DNA from: an uncultured Chthonomonadaceae bacterium
GTDB lineage: Bacteria > Armatimonadota > Chthonomonadetes > Chthonomonadales > Chthonomonadaceae
Assembly: GCA_963817895.1 (NCBI GenBank)
Contig: CAWFQB010000001.1
Location: forward strand, 576,001 to 640,000
Direction: 5' to 3'
DNA: 64,000 bases
Below the pieces are notes generated by a model, which worked only from the letters and a program-made list of their open reading frames with translations, was not told where the DNA came from and searched no databases. The translations under genes were made by a program, and so were the position numbers. Shown here piece after piece: positions 4,346-58,009 of the stretch (positions are counted from its first letter, which is position 1; every line of letters starts with the position of its first letter).

Positions 4346-6196
4346 ATGCCCACGCAATCCGTCGAAGAAAAACTCGCCACGCTTCCGACCAAACCCGGCT
4401 GTTACCTGCACAAAGACAAGACCGGAACCATCATCTATGTCGGCAAAGCCATCAACCTGCGTAACCGCGTCCGCTCGTACTTCCAGAAGTCGGCCAACCA
4501 CTCGCCCAAAGTGCGCCGACTGGTTTCGCACATCGCCGATCTGGAGTACATCGTCTGTGAAACGGAACTGGAAGCGCTTGTCCTCGAATGTAACCTCATC
4601 AAGAAGTACCAGCCGCATTACAATGTCCGGCTGCGCGACGACAAGCAGTATCCCTACCTGTGTCTTACCATGTCGGAGCCGTTTCCGCGCCTGATTGTCG
4701 TGCGGCGCGTTCGGCAGGACAGCAACAAGTATTTCGGGCCGTACACCAATAGCCGCAGCGTGTACGCTACCATGGAACTCGTCAACCGGACTTTTCCCCT
4801 GATCTCGTGCGGCAAAAGTTTCGACGGGCGACCGGTGCAAAAGCCGTGCCTGTATCACCACATGGGGCAATGCCTCGCGCCGTGCGCCGGACTTGCGGAC
4901 AAGGAAGAGTACCGCGCCGCCTGCAAGGACGTTTCCGACTTTCTGGACGGGCGCGAAGAGCGTATCATCAAGGATATGCGCCAACAGATGGAGGAAGCCT
5001 CGGAAAATCTGGAATTCGAGCGGGCCGCCCGTTTGCGGGATCGCTTGCAGGCCGTCGAGGATACCCTGAAACGCCAGCGCGTGATGACGACGGAAACCAT
5101 AGATCAGGACGTTATCGCGGTCGTGGAGGACAATACGGGGCTGAACGGCGCGTGCGTGCAGATGTTCTTTATCCGGGGCGGCAAACTCATCGGGCAGAAC
5201 CATTTTCTGGTCGAGGGTACGGAAGAGGGCAGTCAGGACGACGTTGTTCAGGAGTTCGTGAAGCAGTATTACCAGAACGCCAATTATATTCCGCAGGAGA
5301 TTCTGCTGCCGCATGAGATCGAGGAGAGCCAGATTATTCAGTCGTGGCTGCGGCAGAAAAAGGGCAAAAAGGTCGAGGTGCATGTGCCGGTAAGGGGCGA
5401 CAAGAAGAAACTCATAGACATGGCGACGGAAAACGCCAGTCACGCGCTTGTGCAGATCAAGGCGGAAATGCGGGCTAAAATGGGCAACGCGGAAGTGGCT
5501 CTGAAGGAATTGGGGGAAGCCCTCGGACTGCCGGAACCGCCCATGCGAATCGAGTGTTACGACATTTCCAACACGCAGGGAGCCAATCAGGTCGCGTCCA
5601 TGGTGGTGTGCGAAAAGGGGCAGATGAACAAGACCGAATATCGGCGGTTCAAAATCCAGCGCGAGGACGACAAGCCCAACGACTTTGCCAGCATGGAGGA
5701 GGTACTGCGCCGCCGCCTGAAAGAATCGCAGAAACTCAACAATCCCAAATTCAACAAATTGCCCGACCTGATTATCGTGGACGGCGGGCGCGGGCAGGTG
5801 TCGTCCGCGCTTACAGCCATGACGGAAACGGGCGTCTCGCTTCCCCTGTGCGGGCTTGCCAAGCAGTTCGAGCATCTGTTTCTGCCCAACGAACCCGACC
5901 CGGTCATTCTGCCGCGCAACTCGCAGGCGATGTTTCTCATCCAGCGCATCCGCGACGAGGCGCACCGTTTCGCCAACACCTTCAACGCGCAATTGCGGGG
6001 CAAAGCGCAAACCCATTCCTTGCTCGACGAGGTTCCCGGCATCGGCCCCAAACGCCGCAAGCAGCTTCAACTGCATTTCGGCAGCGTTGCCAAAATGAAG
6101 CAGGCCACCCAATCCGAACTCGCCGAAGCCCCCGGCATGAACGCCTCTTTAGCAGAAGTTCTCTTCGACTACCTGCACGATGCTACGAAAACCTGA
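4346..6196 (+). CDS. uvrC: Excinuclease ABC subunit C
   Basis: GIY-YIG (PGCY..YVGKA), Cys cluster, UVR domain (LEFERAARLRD), RNaseH-like ECYDIS/DGGRGQ, RDEAHRFA and HhH. An extended -10 lies 8 nt before the ATG, so it is probably leaderless. Confidence 0.98.
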   Translation: MPTQSVEEKLATLPTKPGCYLHKDKTGTIIYVGKAINLRNRVRSYFQKSANHSPKVRRLVSHIADLEYIVCETELEALVLECNLIKKYQPHYNVRLRDDKQYPYLCLTMSEPFPRLIVVRRVRQDSNKYFGPYTNSRSVYATMELVNRTFPLISCGKSFDGRPVQKPCLYHHMGQCLAPCAGLADKEEYRAACKDVSDFLDGREERIIKDMRQQMEEASENLEFERAARLRDRLQAVEDTLKRQRVMTTETIDQDVIAVVEDNTGLNGACVQMFFIRGGKLIGQNHFLVEGTEEGSQDDVVQEFVKQYYQNANYIPQEILLPHEIEESQIIQSWLRQKKGKKVEVHVPVRGDKKKLIDMATENASHALVQIKAEMRAKMGNAEVALKELGEALGLPEPPMRIECYDISNTQGANQVASMVVCEKGQMNKTEYRRFKIQREDDKPNDFASMEEVLRRRLKESQKLNNPKFNKLPDLIIVDGGRGQVSSALTAMTETGVSLPLCGLAKQFEHLFLPNEPDPVILPRNSQAMFLIQRIRDEAHRFANTFNAQLRGKAQTHSLLDEVPGIGPKRRKQLQLHFGSVAKMKQATQSELAEAPGMNASLAEVLFDYLHDATKT

Positions 6197-54701: not shown

Positions 54702-55265
54702 CTAAACTTCCATCAAATCCGCTTCTTTGGCCTTCGTCAGCACATCCACTTCCGCGATGTACTTGTCGGTCAGTTTCTGCACCTGCTCCGCGCCCCGCTT
54801 CTCGTCATTCTCGGAAAGCGGGTTCTCCTTATCCTTGCGGGCGGTAGACAGTTTCTTGATGGCGTCCTGCCGCACCGTGCGTATGGACGCCTTGCCCGTT
54901 TCCGCCTTCTGGTTCACCTGCTTGATGAAATCTTTGCGGCGTTGTTCCGTCAGCGGCGGGATGTTCAGGCGGATGCCCACGCCGTCATTGTTGGGCGTGA
55001 TGCCCACATCTGATTTGGAAATCGCCTTTTCGATATGCGCCAGCGCGCTGCGGTCGAACGGCGTAATGAGCAGTTGGCGCGGTTCGGGTACGGACACCGC
55101 CGCCACCTGATTGAGCGGCAGGCTGGAACCGTACATCTCCACTTTGATGTGTTCCAGAATGCCCGGATTGGCCCGTCCCGTGCGTATCAGCGAAAACTCA
55201 TGCTGCACCGCCTCGATGGACTTCTTCATCTTACTCTCAGCGTCTTTGATTAGATCAGGTATCAT
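54702..55265 (-). CDS. frr: Ribosome recycling factor
   Basis: IRTGRANP and IPPLTEQRR; upstream of uppS. Confidence 0.98.
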   Translation of the reverse strand: MIPDLIKDAESKMKKSIEAVQHEFSLIRTGRANPGILEHIKVEMYGSSLPLNQVAAVSVPEPRQLLITPFDRSALAHIEKAISKSDVGITPNNDGVGIRLNIPPLTEQRRKDFIKQVNQKAETGKASIRTVRQDAIKKLSTARKDKENPLSENDEKRGAEQVQKLTDKYIAEVDVLTKAKEADLMEV

Positions 55266-55280
55266 GTTCAGCCTCTTTTG

Positions 55281-55450
55281 TGTAGGATAGGAGTAGCGTC
55301 GTGAACTACCAACACCACGAGGGGTGTGGCTTCCGATTTCAACGAGAACTGGTGACTTTCGCCACTCTGACGTTCCCTCCATCAGCGTTTAGCCTCTCGG
55401 TGATTCCCACCGCGAGTAGTCTCCTGCCCTCACACAGTATGTTCACGGCG
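55281..55450 (-). ncRNA. Predicted omega/reRNA of TnpB with flank-derived guide GACGCTACTCCTATCCTACA
   Basis: TnpB RNAs derive from the right end plus the adjacent flank (established knowledge). The 5' limit here is a guess. Confidence 0.55.
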
Positions 55451-55671
55451 GCATTGATGTCCCTGTCGTGCAGGATTTTGCATCGCTCACACGTCCATTG
55501 TCTGTCGGAGAGTAAGAGAGATTGTTTGTGCTGGCAGCAGTGACAGGTTTTAGACGAGGCAAAGAACCTCCCCACCTTTACCACGCGCTTGTTTTGCCAT
55601 TGCGCCTTATACTCCACCATGCGGAGGAACGTGCCAATAGCAGCATCGGAGAAGGACTTGGCTAACTTGGT
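55339..55671 (-). CDS. tnpB: TnpB C-terminal fragment (Zn finger and RuvC-III)
   Basis: TKLAKSFSDAA..SSKTCHCC..WTCERC..HDRDINAAVNI. Confidence 0.92.
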   Translation of the reverse strand, partial: TKLAKSFSDAAIGTFLRMVEYKAQWQNKRVVKVGRFFASSKTCHCCQHKQSLLLSDRQWTCERCKILHDRDINAAVNILCEGRRLLAVGITERLNADGGNVRVAKVTSSR

Positions 55672-56432
55672 CAGGCCGTTTTGCAGCCCTTTGGCTTTGG
55701 GTTAAACTTTCTGATTGGTATATTGCGCCGTTGCAAAATGCCTCGGACACTTGGGGCGGTTATATGAAAATATGCGGACAATATAGCAGTGCTTTCGCCA
55801 TTTTGGTATCGCAAACATAGCGCGTCCTTTTGTGCGTATGTCAATTTATTTGATTTTTTGTCCTGTGACTTTGCATCAGGATTCGTCCAGCCATGACATG
55901 AGAACCGCTTGCCTTTCGACACCATACCCATTGTTGTAAATGGCAATCCGTGTTCGCGGCAAAATTCCATCATGTTAGGAATTTCTGTCAGTTTACCGTC
56001 AGGTGAAAGTAAACGATGTGGCTCTCCATTTCTATAAGCAAGTGCATGGTGTTCTCTGCTTTCCTTTGTGGCAAACTGATTTTTGGCACTAAGACTGAGG
56101 CGCAATCGGGATTCATCGCTATACTTTACGCCCTTGTTTGTTTTCGTAATCGGGCGCAAATTAAATAGTCGAACACCCGCTGTTTTGTATCGGTCAAAAT
56201 GCTTCTGCTCGGCAACATCACGCGCATCAGCATCAGGCACTACTTCAAGCACAGAAAATTCAAAACAGTTTTCACCGTGCTTGTTCCAAGCATTTTGCAG
56301 GTGACGGTTATCGTGCGTGTTGTTTCGCAGATAACAACGGTGTTGATTCCAGCGTTCAGCCAGATTTTGTGTCTGACCGACATAAACCTTGCCGTTTGCT
56401 GTGCAGGTTATTGAATAGACACCAGCGTTCAT
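55671..56432 (-). CDS. GIY-YIG homing endonuclease (I-TevI/I-BmoI-like) with NUMOD-like and HTH DNA-binding modules
   Basis: GVY..YVGQT..RWNQH..LQNAWNKHG..E..FN; GVKYSDESRLRLS (NUMOD3-like); C-terminal HTH; more AT-rich than tnpB. Confidence 0.93.
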   Translation of the reverse strand: MNAGVYSITCTANGKVYVGQTQNLAERWNQHRCYLRNNTHDNRHLQNAWNKHGENCFEFSVLEVVPDADARDVAEQKHFDRYKTAGVRLFNLRPITKTNKGVKYSDESRLRLSLSAKNQFATKESREHHALAYRNGEPHRLLSPDGKLTEIPNMMEFCREHGLPFTTMGMVSKGKRFSCHGWTNPDAKSQDKKSNKLTYAQKDALCLRYQNGESTAILSAYFHITAPSVRGILQRRNIPIRKFNPKPKGCKTA

Positions 56433-57262
56433 ATTCTCGTTAAGCCTTTGAGGTTCAAGTCCTCGATGCAAAAGGTGTCGAAACGACTCAGAAGACGTGC
56501 CGACAGTTTGTGAAGCCAGTCGTTGCGCTTGTTGCGGACTCTGGCATGGAAGATAGCAACTTGCTTTTTCGCCTTAGCCCGATTGCGGCTTGCCTTCTGG
56601 CAGCGGGAAAGACGGCGTTGCAGGCGTTTGAGTTTGCGTTCGGCCTTGCGATAGAACCTGGGAGGCTTGACTTTCTCGCCCGTGTCAAGGGGCAAAAAGG
56701 ATTGCAGTCCCACGTCTATCCCTACGGGAGCGTCACAGACCGGGGCAATGTCAGGCAGTTCAATATGGCTGACTAAGGTGACATGCCAGTGTCCATCGGC
56801 TTCCTGTTTGATGGTCGCGCCTTTGACAGTTCCCTCCATAGCGCGGTGCAGACGGGCTTTCACCAGTCCGATTTTCGGAAGGGACACTTTGCCGCGCGTG
56901 AGGGTGACATTCTGCGGAATACGAAACGCATTGGGAGTGTGCTTGCGTGATTTGAACGTTGGGAACCGCGCCCGTTTCTCGAAGCAGGCCACGAACGCCC
57001 TGTCCAAATCCATGAGCGTTTGCTGCAACACCTGACTGTGGCACTCTTTCAGGAACGCGGTTTCAGGCAGGCGTTTCAATTTCACCAGTTCCCCCGCAAG
57101 GGCGACATACCCGATGCTTTTGCCTGTCTCTTTGTAGACGGCTTGCTTTCGCGCCAACGCCCAATTCCAGACGAATCTTCTACACCCCGCAAAGCGCAGG
57201 AACTCGTGTTCCTGTTCGAGGGTGGGTTCCAGTCTGAACTTGTAGGTTTTGGTGACAATCAC
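56429..57262 (-). CDS. tnpB: TnpB N-terminal fragment (HTH, WED/REC, RuvC-I and RuvC-II)
   Basis: KTYKFRLEPT, GCRRFVWN, VGIDVGL and CIEDLNLKGL. Confidence 0.95.
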   Translation of the reverse strand: MIVTKTYKFRLEPTLEQEHEFLRFAGCRRFVWNWALARKQAVYKETGKSIGYVALAGELVKLKRLPETAFLKECHSQVLQQTLMDLDRAFVACFEKRARFPTFKSRKHTPNAFRIPQNVTLTRGKVSLPKIGLVKARLHRAMEGTVKGATIKQEADGHWHVTLVSHIELPDIAPVCDAPVGIDVGLQSFLPLDTGEKVKPPRFYRKAERKLKRLQRRLSRCQKASRNRAKAKKQVAIFHARVRNKRNDWLHKLSARLLSRFDTFCIEDLNLKGLTRI

Positions 57263-57281
57263 AGGAGGCCCTTCCGCCTGT

Positions 57282-57365
57282 TCAGGGTTTTGATTTCTGG
57301 TTTGCGATGTACTTGGCAATCATAGCGGCAGAGACGGTTCCTGCGCTGCCGTAGTAACAACCGTC
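57282..57365 (-). pseudogene. tnpA: C-terminal remnant of the IS200 Y1 transposase TnpA
   Basis: Translates to DGCYYGSAGTVSAAMIAKYIANQKSKP*, containing the catalytic YIxNQ motif. The rest is deleted. Confidence 0.8.
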
Positions 57366-58009
57366 CGACCGGGCGTCCACCCCAAGGGAAGGACACCACA
57401 AGGGGATGGGGTTTTCTGGCCTTGTCTCTATAAAATATGTCAAAATAGCGCCTGCCAACTGTCTACAAACTCAGCAACGCGCCCGTTTGTTCCCGCAGCA
57501 GCGCGACACGACGATGTAATGTTGTTTCGGCTTCGGCCTGCGTATTTCCTGCCGCAAACGGCAAATTGAAAGTGGCGTCATAAATCCGAAAGCAACTGTT
57601 TAGCCCCGTTCTCGGTTCTTGCTTCTGTAGAAACATCTAACTTTATCATGGCGGCTGTTCGATCAGTTCAGACTTGTAGAAAGGCTGATGCAACTCCATA
57701 TATCCATCGCTAATCTACTCAAAATATTGATCTTAATTTGAAGGATTCAGCAGCAACGCGCCTACGGTATTTAGATGAAAGTAGGATACGGACGCGCAAT
57801 GAAAAGACCCTTTTGCGCTCCTCTCTTGATAAAGGCGGAAATGAGTTATTGCGTGTTCCACGTAATGACTGCCAAAATGATGAAATTTGATATAGTCGAT
57901 GGACTAGCGTAAGTGTCACTGTCAAAAAGAAACTTCTATATTGTCCAATGTGCTTGAACATGTAAGAAGCAGAAAGGCAACACTATGATATACCCTGTGC
58001 GTCAGTAGT

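Follow-up and report, generated by a model that had tools for sequence, protein, structure and literature searches.

A GIY-YIG homing endonuclease gene splits an IS605-type tnpB beside its RuvC-II glutamate codon, at a site also occupied in a distantly related tnpB

The tnpB gene is among the most abundant in prokaryotes, and TnpB is the ancestor of Cas12. Here we describe a tnpB of an IS200/IS605-type insertion sequence (IS) that is split by a GIY-YIG homing endonuclease gene. It lies in a 64,000-nucleotide stretch of DNA from an uncultured Chthonomonadaceae bacterium (contig CAWFQB010000001.1; hereafter the window), and all features of the element are on the minus strand. The closest described arrangements come from phages: there, genes are interrupted at critical sites by free-standing endonuclease genes, namely mobE in Aeh1 nrdA, mobA at T4 gene 39/60, and seg43 in gene 43 (PMC2988022). 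Our locus is like Aeh1 mobE and T4 mobA in that no intron or intein is involved, the site is in conserved, critical coding sequence, and two separate reading frames are left. MobE and MobA, however, are HNH enzymes encoded by phages, they interrupt essential genes whose split products must work, and their genes carry regulatory sequence with them. In the window, by contrast, a GIY-YIG gene occurs as a bare open reading frame (ORF) on a bacterial chromosome, its host gene is a selfish RNA-guided nuclease, and the tnpB site is occupied in two orientations in different lineages.

Other known systems share single traits with the locus. The intron-encoded I-TevI of phage T4 (PDB: 1MK0 and 1LN0) has the same type of catalytic domain, a modular plan with a linker, and a precise, reused insertion site; the window gene differs in having no group I intron, and its C-terminal modules are NUMOD-like or (weakly) I-HmuI-like, followed by a helix-turn-helix (HTH) of the CENP-B_N type. 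The T4 Seg genes are free-standing GIY-YIG genes that spread without an intron by double-strand-break repair, termed intronless homing (PMC2988022), but they are intergenic and cut hundreds to thousands of bases away, whereas the window gene occupies a fixed site within its presumed target. IStrons likewise join a second selfish element to a tnpB-bearing IS (10.1101/2023.11.20.567912 and PMC4227781); in the former, the IS is enclosed by a group I intron and its tnpB remains intact, whereas in the window tnpB itself is interrupted. Finally, the target protein corresponds to ISDra2-type TnpB (PDB: 8EXA, 8BF8, and 8H1J) in its catalytic D, E, and D residues and CCCC zinc finger, but the window copy lacks a tnpA partner and is in two pieces, with the cut approximately nine residues past the RuvC-II glutamate. 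Homing endonuclease genes that interrupt their targets without an intron are already known; tnpB as the target, or any endonuclease gene inside tnpB, was not found described in the full-text literature, a search that covered no subscription journals. What is new here is that a distant endonuclease occupies the same phosphodiester of a distantly related tnpB. We consider it likely that a clade of free-standing homing endonucleases has specialized on the conserved tnpB DNA that encodes the flexible loop behind the RuvC-II glutamate.

The initial annotation of the window, made by a model from the letters and predicted ORFs, had proposed that removal of positions 55672–56434 rejoins a seamless 386-amino-acid TnpB and that the removed DNA is a nearly bare 762-bp ORF without intron, intein, or target duplication. 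Both proposals were borne out. The three closest relatives of the host gene (P0019, P0020, and P0021; 91%, 88%, and 87% identical) are uninterrupted proteins of 386 amino acids, and alignment with them places the break exactly at R276|T277. The N-terminal fragment (56429–57262) starts with GTG at 57262 and comprises codons 1–276 by homology, one foreign codon, and a stop; it ends with IEDLNLKGLTR, then I, then TGA at 56431–56429. It is 91% identical to P0019 over this part and carries the RuvC-I aspartate (GIDVG) and the RuvC-II glutamate (IEDL). The C-terminal fragment (55339–55671), which runs from T277 to the stop, is in a third frame and reads (CTG) ACC AAG, or (L)TKLAKSFSDAA, onward to the normal TnpB end; it contains the post-loop helix, the zinc ribbon (CxxC...CxxC), and the RuvC-III aspartate (HDRD). 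All three catalytic motifs and both CxxC pairs are thus retained across the fragments. Pfam identified HTH_OrfB_IS605 and OrfB_IS605 in the N piece and Cas12f1-like_TNB in the C piece; the middle ORF matched GIY-YIG (E 3e-13).

DNA alignment to the uninterrupted genes of two family members, together with a metagenome contig whose joint skips exactly 763 bases, defined the insert (55672–56434), with a 1-nt (A) ambiguity at its boundaries and no target duplication. The endonuclease ORF (55671–56432; 253 amino acids) fills 762 of the 763 bases, which leaves one or two spare, and its ends overlap both tnpB pieces: the ATG (56432–56430) overlaps the tnpB-N stop as ATGA, and the stop TGA (55673–55671) shares its A with the T277 codon ACC, in line with the ATGA and CTGA overlaps given in the initial annotation. 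The ORF has a G+C content of 44.9%, compared with 53%–55% for the tnpB pieces and 56.3% for the window, so the endonuclease gene looks foreign. No Rfam intron RNA family was matched between 54900 and 57900 at E ≤ 10, where only noise was returned. An intein was also considered for the window and rejected because the three pieces are in three frames, with two frame shifts.

Uninterrupted and occupied alleles of the gene were both found, which gives a presence/absence polymorphism at one homologous tnpB site among related genomes. Two genomes of the same family (G022 and G199) have an uninterrupted tnpB with the DNA ...GGCTTAGTGA(A/G)A ACCAAACTGG... across the site, and a contig from another study (X3 record 14) carries an uninterrupted allele, approximately 87% identical, in which 55670 is joined to 56434 and the 763 bases are skipped. 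The uninterrupted copies that the initial annotation had left to be sought thus exist in relatives, and its two junctions are bridged in contigs of other runs. The C junction is bridged by X1 record 4 (595 bp, 20 differences) and X2 record 9 (222 bp, 0 differences; X2 is possibly the source sample), and the N junction is bridged by X4 record 24 (252 bp, 8 differences). This evidence consists of contigs from three studies rather than raw reads, and it carries no sign of a chimera; with both junctions bridged in other runs (X1, X2, and X4), a chimeric assembly is next to inconceivable. Occupied alleles approximately 97% and 100% identical to the window's are present in contigs of several studies. 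In another contig (X4 record 22), a tnpB-C that is 86% identical extends 25 nt into the endonuclease gene, which is under our 31-nt rule for bridging but hints at the endonuclease gene in a diverged allele. A protein search with the N piece gave 1787 relatives at E ≤ 0.001; among the best 120 of these, the six truncated TnpBs inspected included none that ends at residue 276.

The inserted ORF is, as judged from its sequence, an I-TevI-type homing endonuclease with all catalytic positions present. Residues Y6, Y17, R27, H31, H40, E75, and N91 are invariant in an alignment with the three closest relatives, and we take them to be the counterparts of the I-TevI catalytic residues. The best solved relative is the I-TevI catalytic domain, both by sequence (1MK0, E 1e-11, aligned from residue 1) and by fold (TM [template modeling] score of 0.82–0.84 on the target), and R27 and E75 are the positions mutated in PDB: 1LN0 and 1MK0 (R27A and E75A). 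An AlphaFold (AF2) model, built from a shallow alignment of 7 rows, had a mean predicted local distance difference test (pLDDT) score of 78.8. It comprises the catalytic domain (residues 1–91), a low-confidence linker (95–103), a beta-hairpin-plus-helices module (139–172), and a three-helix bundle (199–235). The beta-hairpin module has a weak likeness to the DNA-binding region of I-HmuI (fold search, E 0.011), and in the relative P0002, Pfam scored a CENP-B_N HTH for the region of the three-helix bundle. No sigma-70-like promoter site was found for the window endonuclease.

A second lineage provides the evidence that the site is reused. When metagenomes were scanned for relatives of the endonuclease, eight loci were found, and in two of them (L005 and L006) the gene is inside a tnpB; the initial annotation had raised the prospect of other tnpB genes with an endonuclease at the same codon. 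L005 and L006 are soil metagenome contigs of 72 and 90 kb that are identical over 10.7 kb and were therefore counted as one lineage. The L005 endonuclease is 46% identical to the window's, and the tnpB pieces are 48% (N part) and 52% (C part) identical to their window counterparts. A profile of 79 TnpBs matches the L005 tnpB at positions 1–276 and 276–384, on either side of a 264-codon gap. At the DNA level, L005 reads GCG AAA, then the insert, then ACC AAG CTG GCG AAG, that is, K276|T277, and the window reads AGA, then the insert, then ACC AAG TTA GCC AAG; the same phosphodiester is occupied in both.

In L005, the endonuclease gene is antisense to tnpB. Its 792-bp insert consists of a 21-nt leader, the ORF, and 3 nt past the stop, so it is again a nearly bare gene. 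The leader (L005 4980–5003) contains a TGnTATAAT-like box whose end is 6 nt upstream of the ATG, so that the mRNA would be leaderless. The insert keeps the frame of tnpB, and the open frame antisense to the endonuclease gene forms a 666-amino-acid ORF. Selection for this long frame was considered and is unproven: the endonuclease has no TTA, CTA, or TCA codons among 256, compared with 0.85% in neighboring genes (P ~0.11). An intein in L005 was also considered and rejected, since the read-through peptide has no Hint or intein domain in Pfam. In P0139, a 98%-identical variant of L005, the long read-through frame ends early, and three of the four amino acid differences inside the insert are silent in the endonuclease frame, so the endonuclease is the constrained reading. 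A search for further antisense read-through proteins with the L005 insert returned only P0139, which belongs to the same lineage.

A further occupant may be P0140. Its ORF as called starts 14 residues early, and residues 9–14 of the extension (MWYNHV) parallel the L005 leader (MCYNRT), with the TAT-AAT codons kept. Residues 4–6 are K-F-G, and the antisense reading in register is T-K-L, the opening residues of the TnpB C piece; by a rough estimate, the chance of such a match is a few in a thousand. These five residues suggest that P0140 is another antisense occupant of the same tnpB site.

The site lies between two invariant or nearly invariant blocks of TnpB, E267–L274 and T277–A286, a position typical of homing targets. 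In the 15 bases on its right side (ACCAAG-YTR-GCS-AAG), the two tnpB subfamilies share 12 by hand count. To the left of the insert, L005 strays strongly from the consensus (5772–5810; FESVHARGLAK in place of IEDLNLKGLTR), although the right side is conserved; this departure could be drift after the interruption or a trait of the subfamily. Because the two orientations cannot be derived from each other by homing, either the site was colonized more than once or the gene underwent inversion in situ. The simplest account of the two orientations would be that illegitimate joining captured the gene where it had itself made a cut. A palindromic target was also considered and rejected because only a weak, lineage-specific inverted repeat was seen by eye.

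The position of the insert in a conserved catalytic domain is typical of introns and inteins, and the L005 insert is in frame (264 codons); a hidden self-splicing element, that is, a group I or II intron or an intein that restores TnpB, might therefore be invoked. We regard this as very improbable. Neither locus matched an Rfam intron at E ≤ 10, the ORF fills all but one base of the window insert, the three frames of the window exclude an intein there, and the L005 peptide lacks a Hint domain.

In an exhaustive profile search over 1.84 billion representatives, 67,747 GIY-YIG relatives were obtained at E ≤ 0.001, a number that fell to 328 at E ≤ 1e-30. Among these, a small group matched end to end with far better scores than the rest: P0002, P0140, P0141, and P0142. 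P0002 is 61% identical to the L005 endonuclease, and P0140 is 46% identical to the L005 endonuclease and 42% to the window's. P0141 is 60% identical to the L005 endonuclease, but its first ~60 residues are unrelated, and its N terminus is probably degenerate on this sequence evidence. P0142 is 36%–38% identical to the L005 and window endonucleases. The more distant relatives are ordinary free-standing endonucleases, some of which adjoin phage prohead-protease and portal genes. In such surroundings, and in phage records that label the matches as homing endonucleases, the wider family behaves as homing endonucleases do. The flanks of 24 loci with such distant GIY-YIG relatives gave no match to a narrow TnpB profile at E ≤ 10, a profile that misses distant TnpBs; Pfam analysis of the flanks of nine of the 24 found a single TnpB, complete and uninterrupted, in L016.

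Several observations weigh against a clade specialized on tnpB. In the window's phylum, 11 of 401 genomes (the window's own included) match the endonuclease at E ≤ 1e-5, none over the full length, and the best foreign match covers only positions 3–133. In the phylum of G411, none of 401 genomes matches at E ≤ 1e-25, a strict threshold that G411 itself does not reach. IMG/VR viral contigs gave three loci, the best at 36% identity, and no close relative; plasmid records gave 21 matches, none of which reached 60% identity or spanned 80% or more of the query; and phage records gave 68 matches, all below 60% identity, which are annotated as homing endonucleases. With no close relative in these phyla, plasmids, phages, or IMG/VR contigs, the clade is rare. 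The DNA context is available for two lineages only, and the third rests on five residues. The opposite orientations need another route, illegitimate insertion, for at least one colonization. The genome has no second target copy, so in this host the endonuclease gene may have reached a dead end. Phage endonucleases of the free-standing kind usually cleave hundreds of bases away from the gene that encodes them (PMC2988022), and the precise reuse of one site is more like intron-encoded enzymes. Decay also occurs, in that the N terminus of P0141 looks degenerate and the read-through frame of P0139 is broken.

Some of these points would also fit a one-off accident, in which a stray endonuclease gene landed in tnpB without site specificity and is decaying. 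The tnpB and the endonuclease gene are both single copy in the genome, the clade is rare, and no promoter-like site was found. We think this improbable because a 46%-identical homolog sits at the same phosphodiester of an unrelated tnpB, which already strains such a reading. In addition, the ORF is intact with all catalytic positions present, the occupied alleles (~97% and 100%) recur in contigs of several studies, and in both lineages the insert is reduced to the ORF. The reading of the initial annotation, a hyperparasite that homes into tnpB, is strengthened by the I-TevI-type identity, by the lack of room for an intron or intein, and by the 46%-identical homolog at the identical site. Its proposal of a multicopy tnpB pool did not hold for this genome. 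The assembly (7.48 Mb in 14 contigs, with a marker-based completeness of 81%) has one copy of this tnpB, and the other two matches are paralogs only 33% and 28% identical; any target pool lies in the related elements that other genomes carry.

For a homing clade specialized on tnpB, we envisage the following course. An endonuclease gene without an intron or intein would have colonized the tnpB site between codons 276 and 277. Since tnpB is selfish and dispensable to the cell, there would be no selection for an intron or intein that removes the interruption. In the sense orientation of the window, the endonuclease would probably be expressed via the tnpB transcript, by termination-reinitiation at the ATGA; in the antisense lineage of L005, it could be expressed from its own leader. 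The enzyme would then bind the uninterrupted site in a related tnpB via its C-terminal NUMOD-like and helix-turn-helix modules and cut near it, and repair from the occupied allele would copy the endonuclease gene in. The occupied allele would be immune because its site is split. The endonuclease gene would travel with the IS, mobilized by other transposases, and by gene transfer. We infer cleavage specificity, homing, and expression route alike.

The interruption has left TnpB without clear decay. At the 102 columns that are at least 95% conserved, the window pieces deviate at three, compared with a mean of 1.2 and a maximum of four in 79 intact relatives, and tnpB-C has no deviations at its 27 such columns. 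This is consistent with either a recent insertion or persisting constraint. The structural position of the break can be approximated from the intact relative P0019, which matches ISDra2 TnpB over residues 4–382 (E 4e-75). In the AlphaFold model of P0019 (pLDDT 83), residues 271–282 are the one internal segment with a pLDDT below 50. This segment is flanked by the strand 263–267, which bears E267, and the helix 284–301, and the insertion is in the middle of it. We take this loop to be the equivalent of the Cas12 lid. On this model, a split here would be structurally the mildest possible and yet beside the active site. In ISDra2 TnpB, the RuvC catalytic residues are D191, E278, and D361 and the CCCC zinc finger spans C331–C354 (PMC10097598), and in Cas12f, replacement of the lid abolishes activity (PMC8053092).

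The question is then whether TnpB might be tolerated as a two-piece enzyme, with the N and C fragments made from one transcript and reassembled on the omega RNA. This would be compatible with a homing endonuclease, and the endonuclease and the IS would coexist. Neither fragment contains a stop or a frameshift, the zinc ribbon is retained along with the catalytic D, E, and D, the three deviations at conserved columns are within the intact relatives' maximum, the break is in the least confident, loop-like stretch of the P0019 model, and the first junction has an ATGA overlap. A precedent is the split nrdA of phage Aeh1, which is fully active (PMC2988022). Set against this, tnpB-C has no ATG, GTG, or TTG codon before M294 (17 codons in, at 55620), and only two CTG codons, which makes synthesis of the C piece doubtful. 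The sequence thus lends the translational coupling proposed in the initial annotation only half its support: the junction of tnpB-N and the endonuclease is a classic ATGA overlap, but the C fragment lacks a canonical start. A needed lid in Cas12f (PMC8053092, as above) also argues against a working split enzyme, insofar as the assumed TnpB equivalence holds. Moreover, the intactness may mean just that the insertion is recent, and a single-copy element has no target to home into. The antisense, in-frame layout of L005 is unlike that of the window and is probably accidental, given the P value of its open frame and the broken frame in P0139. Overall, we consider a tolerated two-piece TnpB unlikely, if somewhat less so than an accidental disruption. 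A more far-reaching version is about as improbable as that accident: a dedicated tnpB parasite that entered the lid loop in two or more independent events, one per orientation, presumably by end joining at its own cut, with TnpB still active as two pieces in the window and as a loop-insertion protein in L005.

The interest of the finding lies in the target, TnpB, and in the recurrence of the site, which looks like a parasite specialized on a parasite. If the clade homes into tnpB, it would be a natural enemy or hitch-hiker of OMEGA elements, in which a protein-guided homing nuclease exploits an RNA-guided one, and it could shape IS605 dynamics. That one site is filled in both orientations is relevant to a standing question, namely how an endonuclease gene makes its first entry into a new site. 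If the interrupted TnpB were active, protein-guided and RNA-guided homing nucleases would persist together, and a natural permissive split site would be marked in TnpB; the loop break behind the RuvC-II glutamate would be a candidate split or insertion site for compact TnpB editors, should the pieces prove active.

The split gene is part of a tnpB-only IS200/IS605-type element of 2129 bp (55301–57429), or 1366 bp without the insert. The element has the traits of its class: the RuvC D-E-D triad, a zinc ribbon, defined ends, a short target motif, no duplication, and an empty site in relatives. The ends, 55301 and 57429, had already been given in the initial annotation and agree with two empty sites. 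In a sister species of the same genus (G389), the element is absent and the flanks are approximately 22 bp apart, and in a contig from X2 (record 7), 55300 runs directly into the far flank. The hexamer TTTTAT (57430–57435), which flanks the left end, was identified from these comparisons; in both empty sites it abuts the right flank directly. By analogy with what is known of IS605, it is likely the target motif that precedes insertion, in the role of a target-adjacent motif. ORF inspection found no tnpA inside the element; elsewhere in the genome there are three Y1-transposase genes (L048–L050), one of them with an in-frame TAG.

Near the left end is a hairpin motif of ~29 nt (57369–57397) with 25 further places in the genome. 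A search of the genome (G000) gave 26 matches, including the element's own copy, at 84%–97% identity over 26–38 nt; L046 and L055–L062 are examples of the other places. The motif folds as a hairpin in a DNA fold, where the z-score of the entire left end is only −0.9, and it looks like a repetitive extragenic palindromic (REP)-like or IS200/605-end hairpin family. At the other end, the tnpB 3' end and right end (approximately 55301–55480) would be expected to encode the omega RNA scaffold, by likeness to ISDra2-type elements (PMC10097598). No Rfam family match to an omega RNA was found in 54900–57900, and related elements diverge from 55328 outward. The right end is upstream of frr, which encodes ribosome recycling factor (MIPDLIKDAE...), at 35 bp from its likely start (window 55263–55300); uppS is downstream. 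Transcription that exits tnpB and the omega RNA region continues directly into frr; the sister species has no element there.

One allele of the window's tnpB clade, P0022 (five member sequences on four contigs), is a protein of only 313 amino acids. It lacks 73 residues (...WLHK to ...QHK|QSLLLS), a loss that takes in the RuvC-II glutamate and the first CxxC as well as the endonuclease site; its C part is the closest to that of the window. The deletion runs from one HK codon pair to another, and in the window DNA the two pairs have a 7-nt repeat in common; it may be a microhomology-repair scar of endonuclease cutting or, equally, replication slippage.

Two observations concern more distant GIY-YIG genes. 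L016 (1866–4589; Leptolyngbyaceae) has a GIY-YIG/NUMOD3 gene approximately 600 bp from the complete TnpB, which has 428 amino acids; the two genes are divergent and adjacent, not nested. L013 (1383–2258) and L014 (4974–5852) contain GIY-YIG genes that are 34%–36% identical and have repeated NUMOD-like modules. In Herpetosiphonaceae and Pyrinomonadaceae genomes, respectively, both immediately precede the same DUF255/Thioredox_DsbH gene on its upstream side, with a slight overlap, which looks like another site-faithful lineage of free-standing endonucleases across two phyla.

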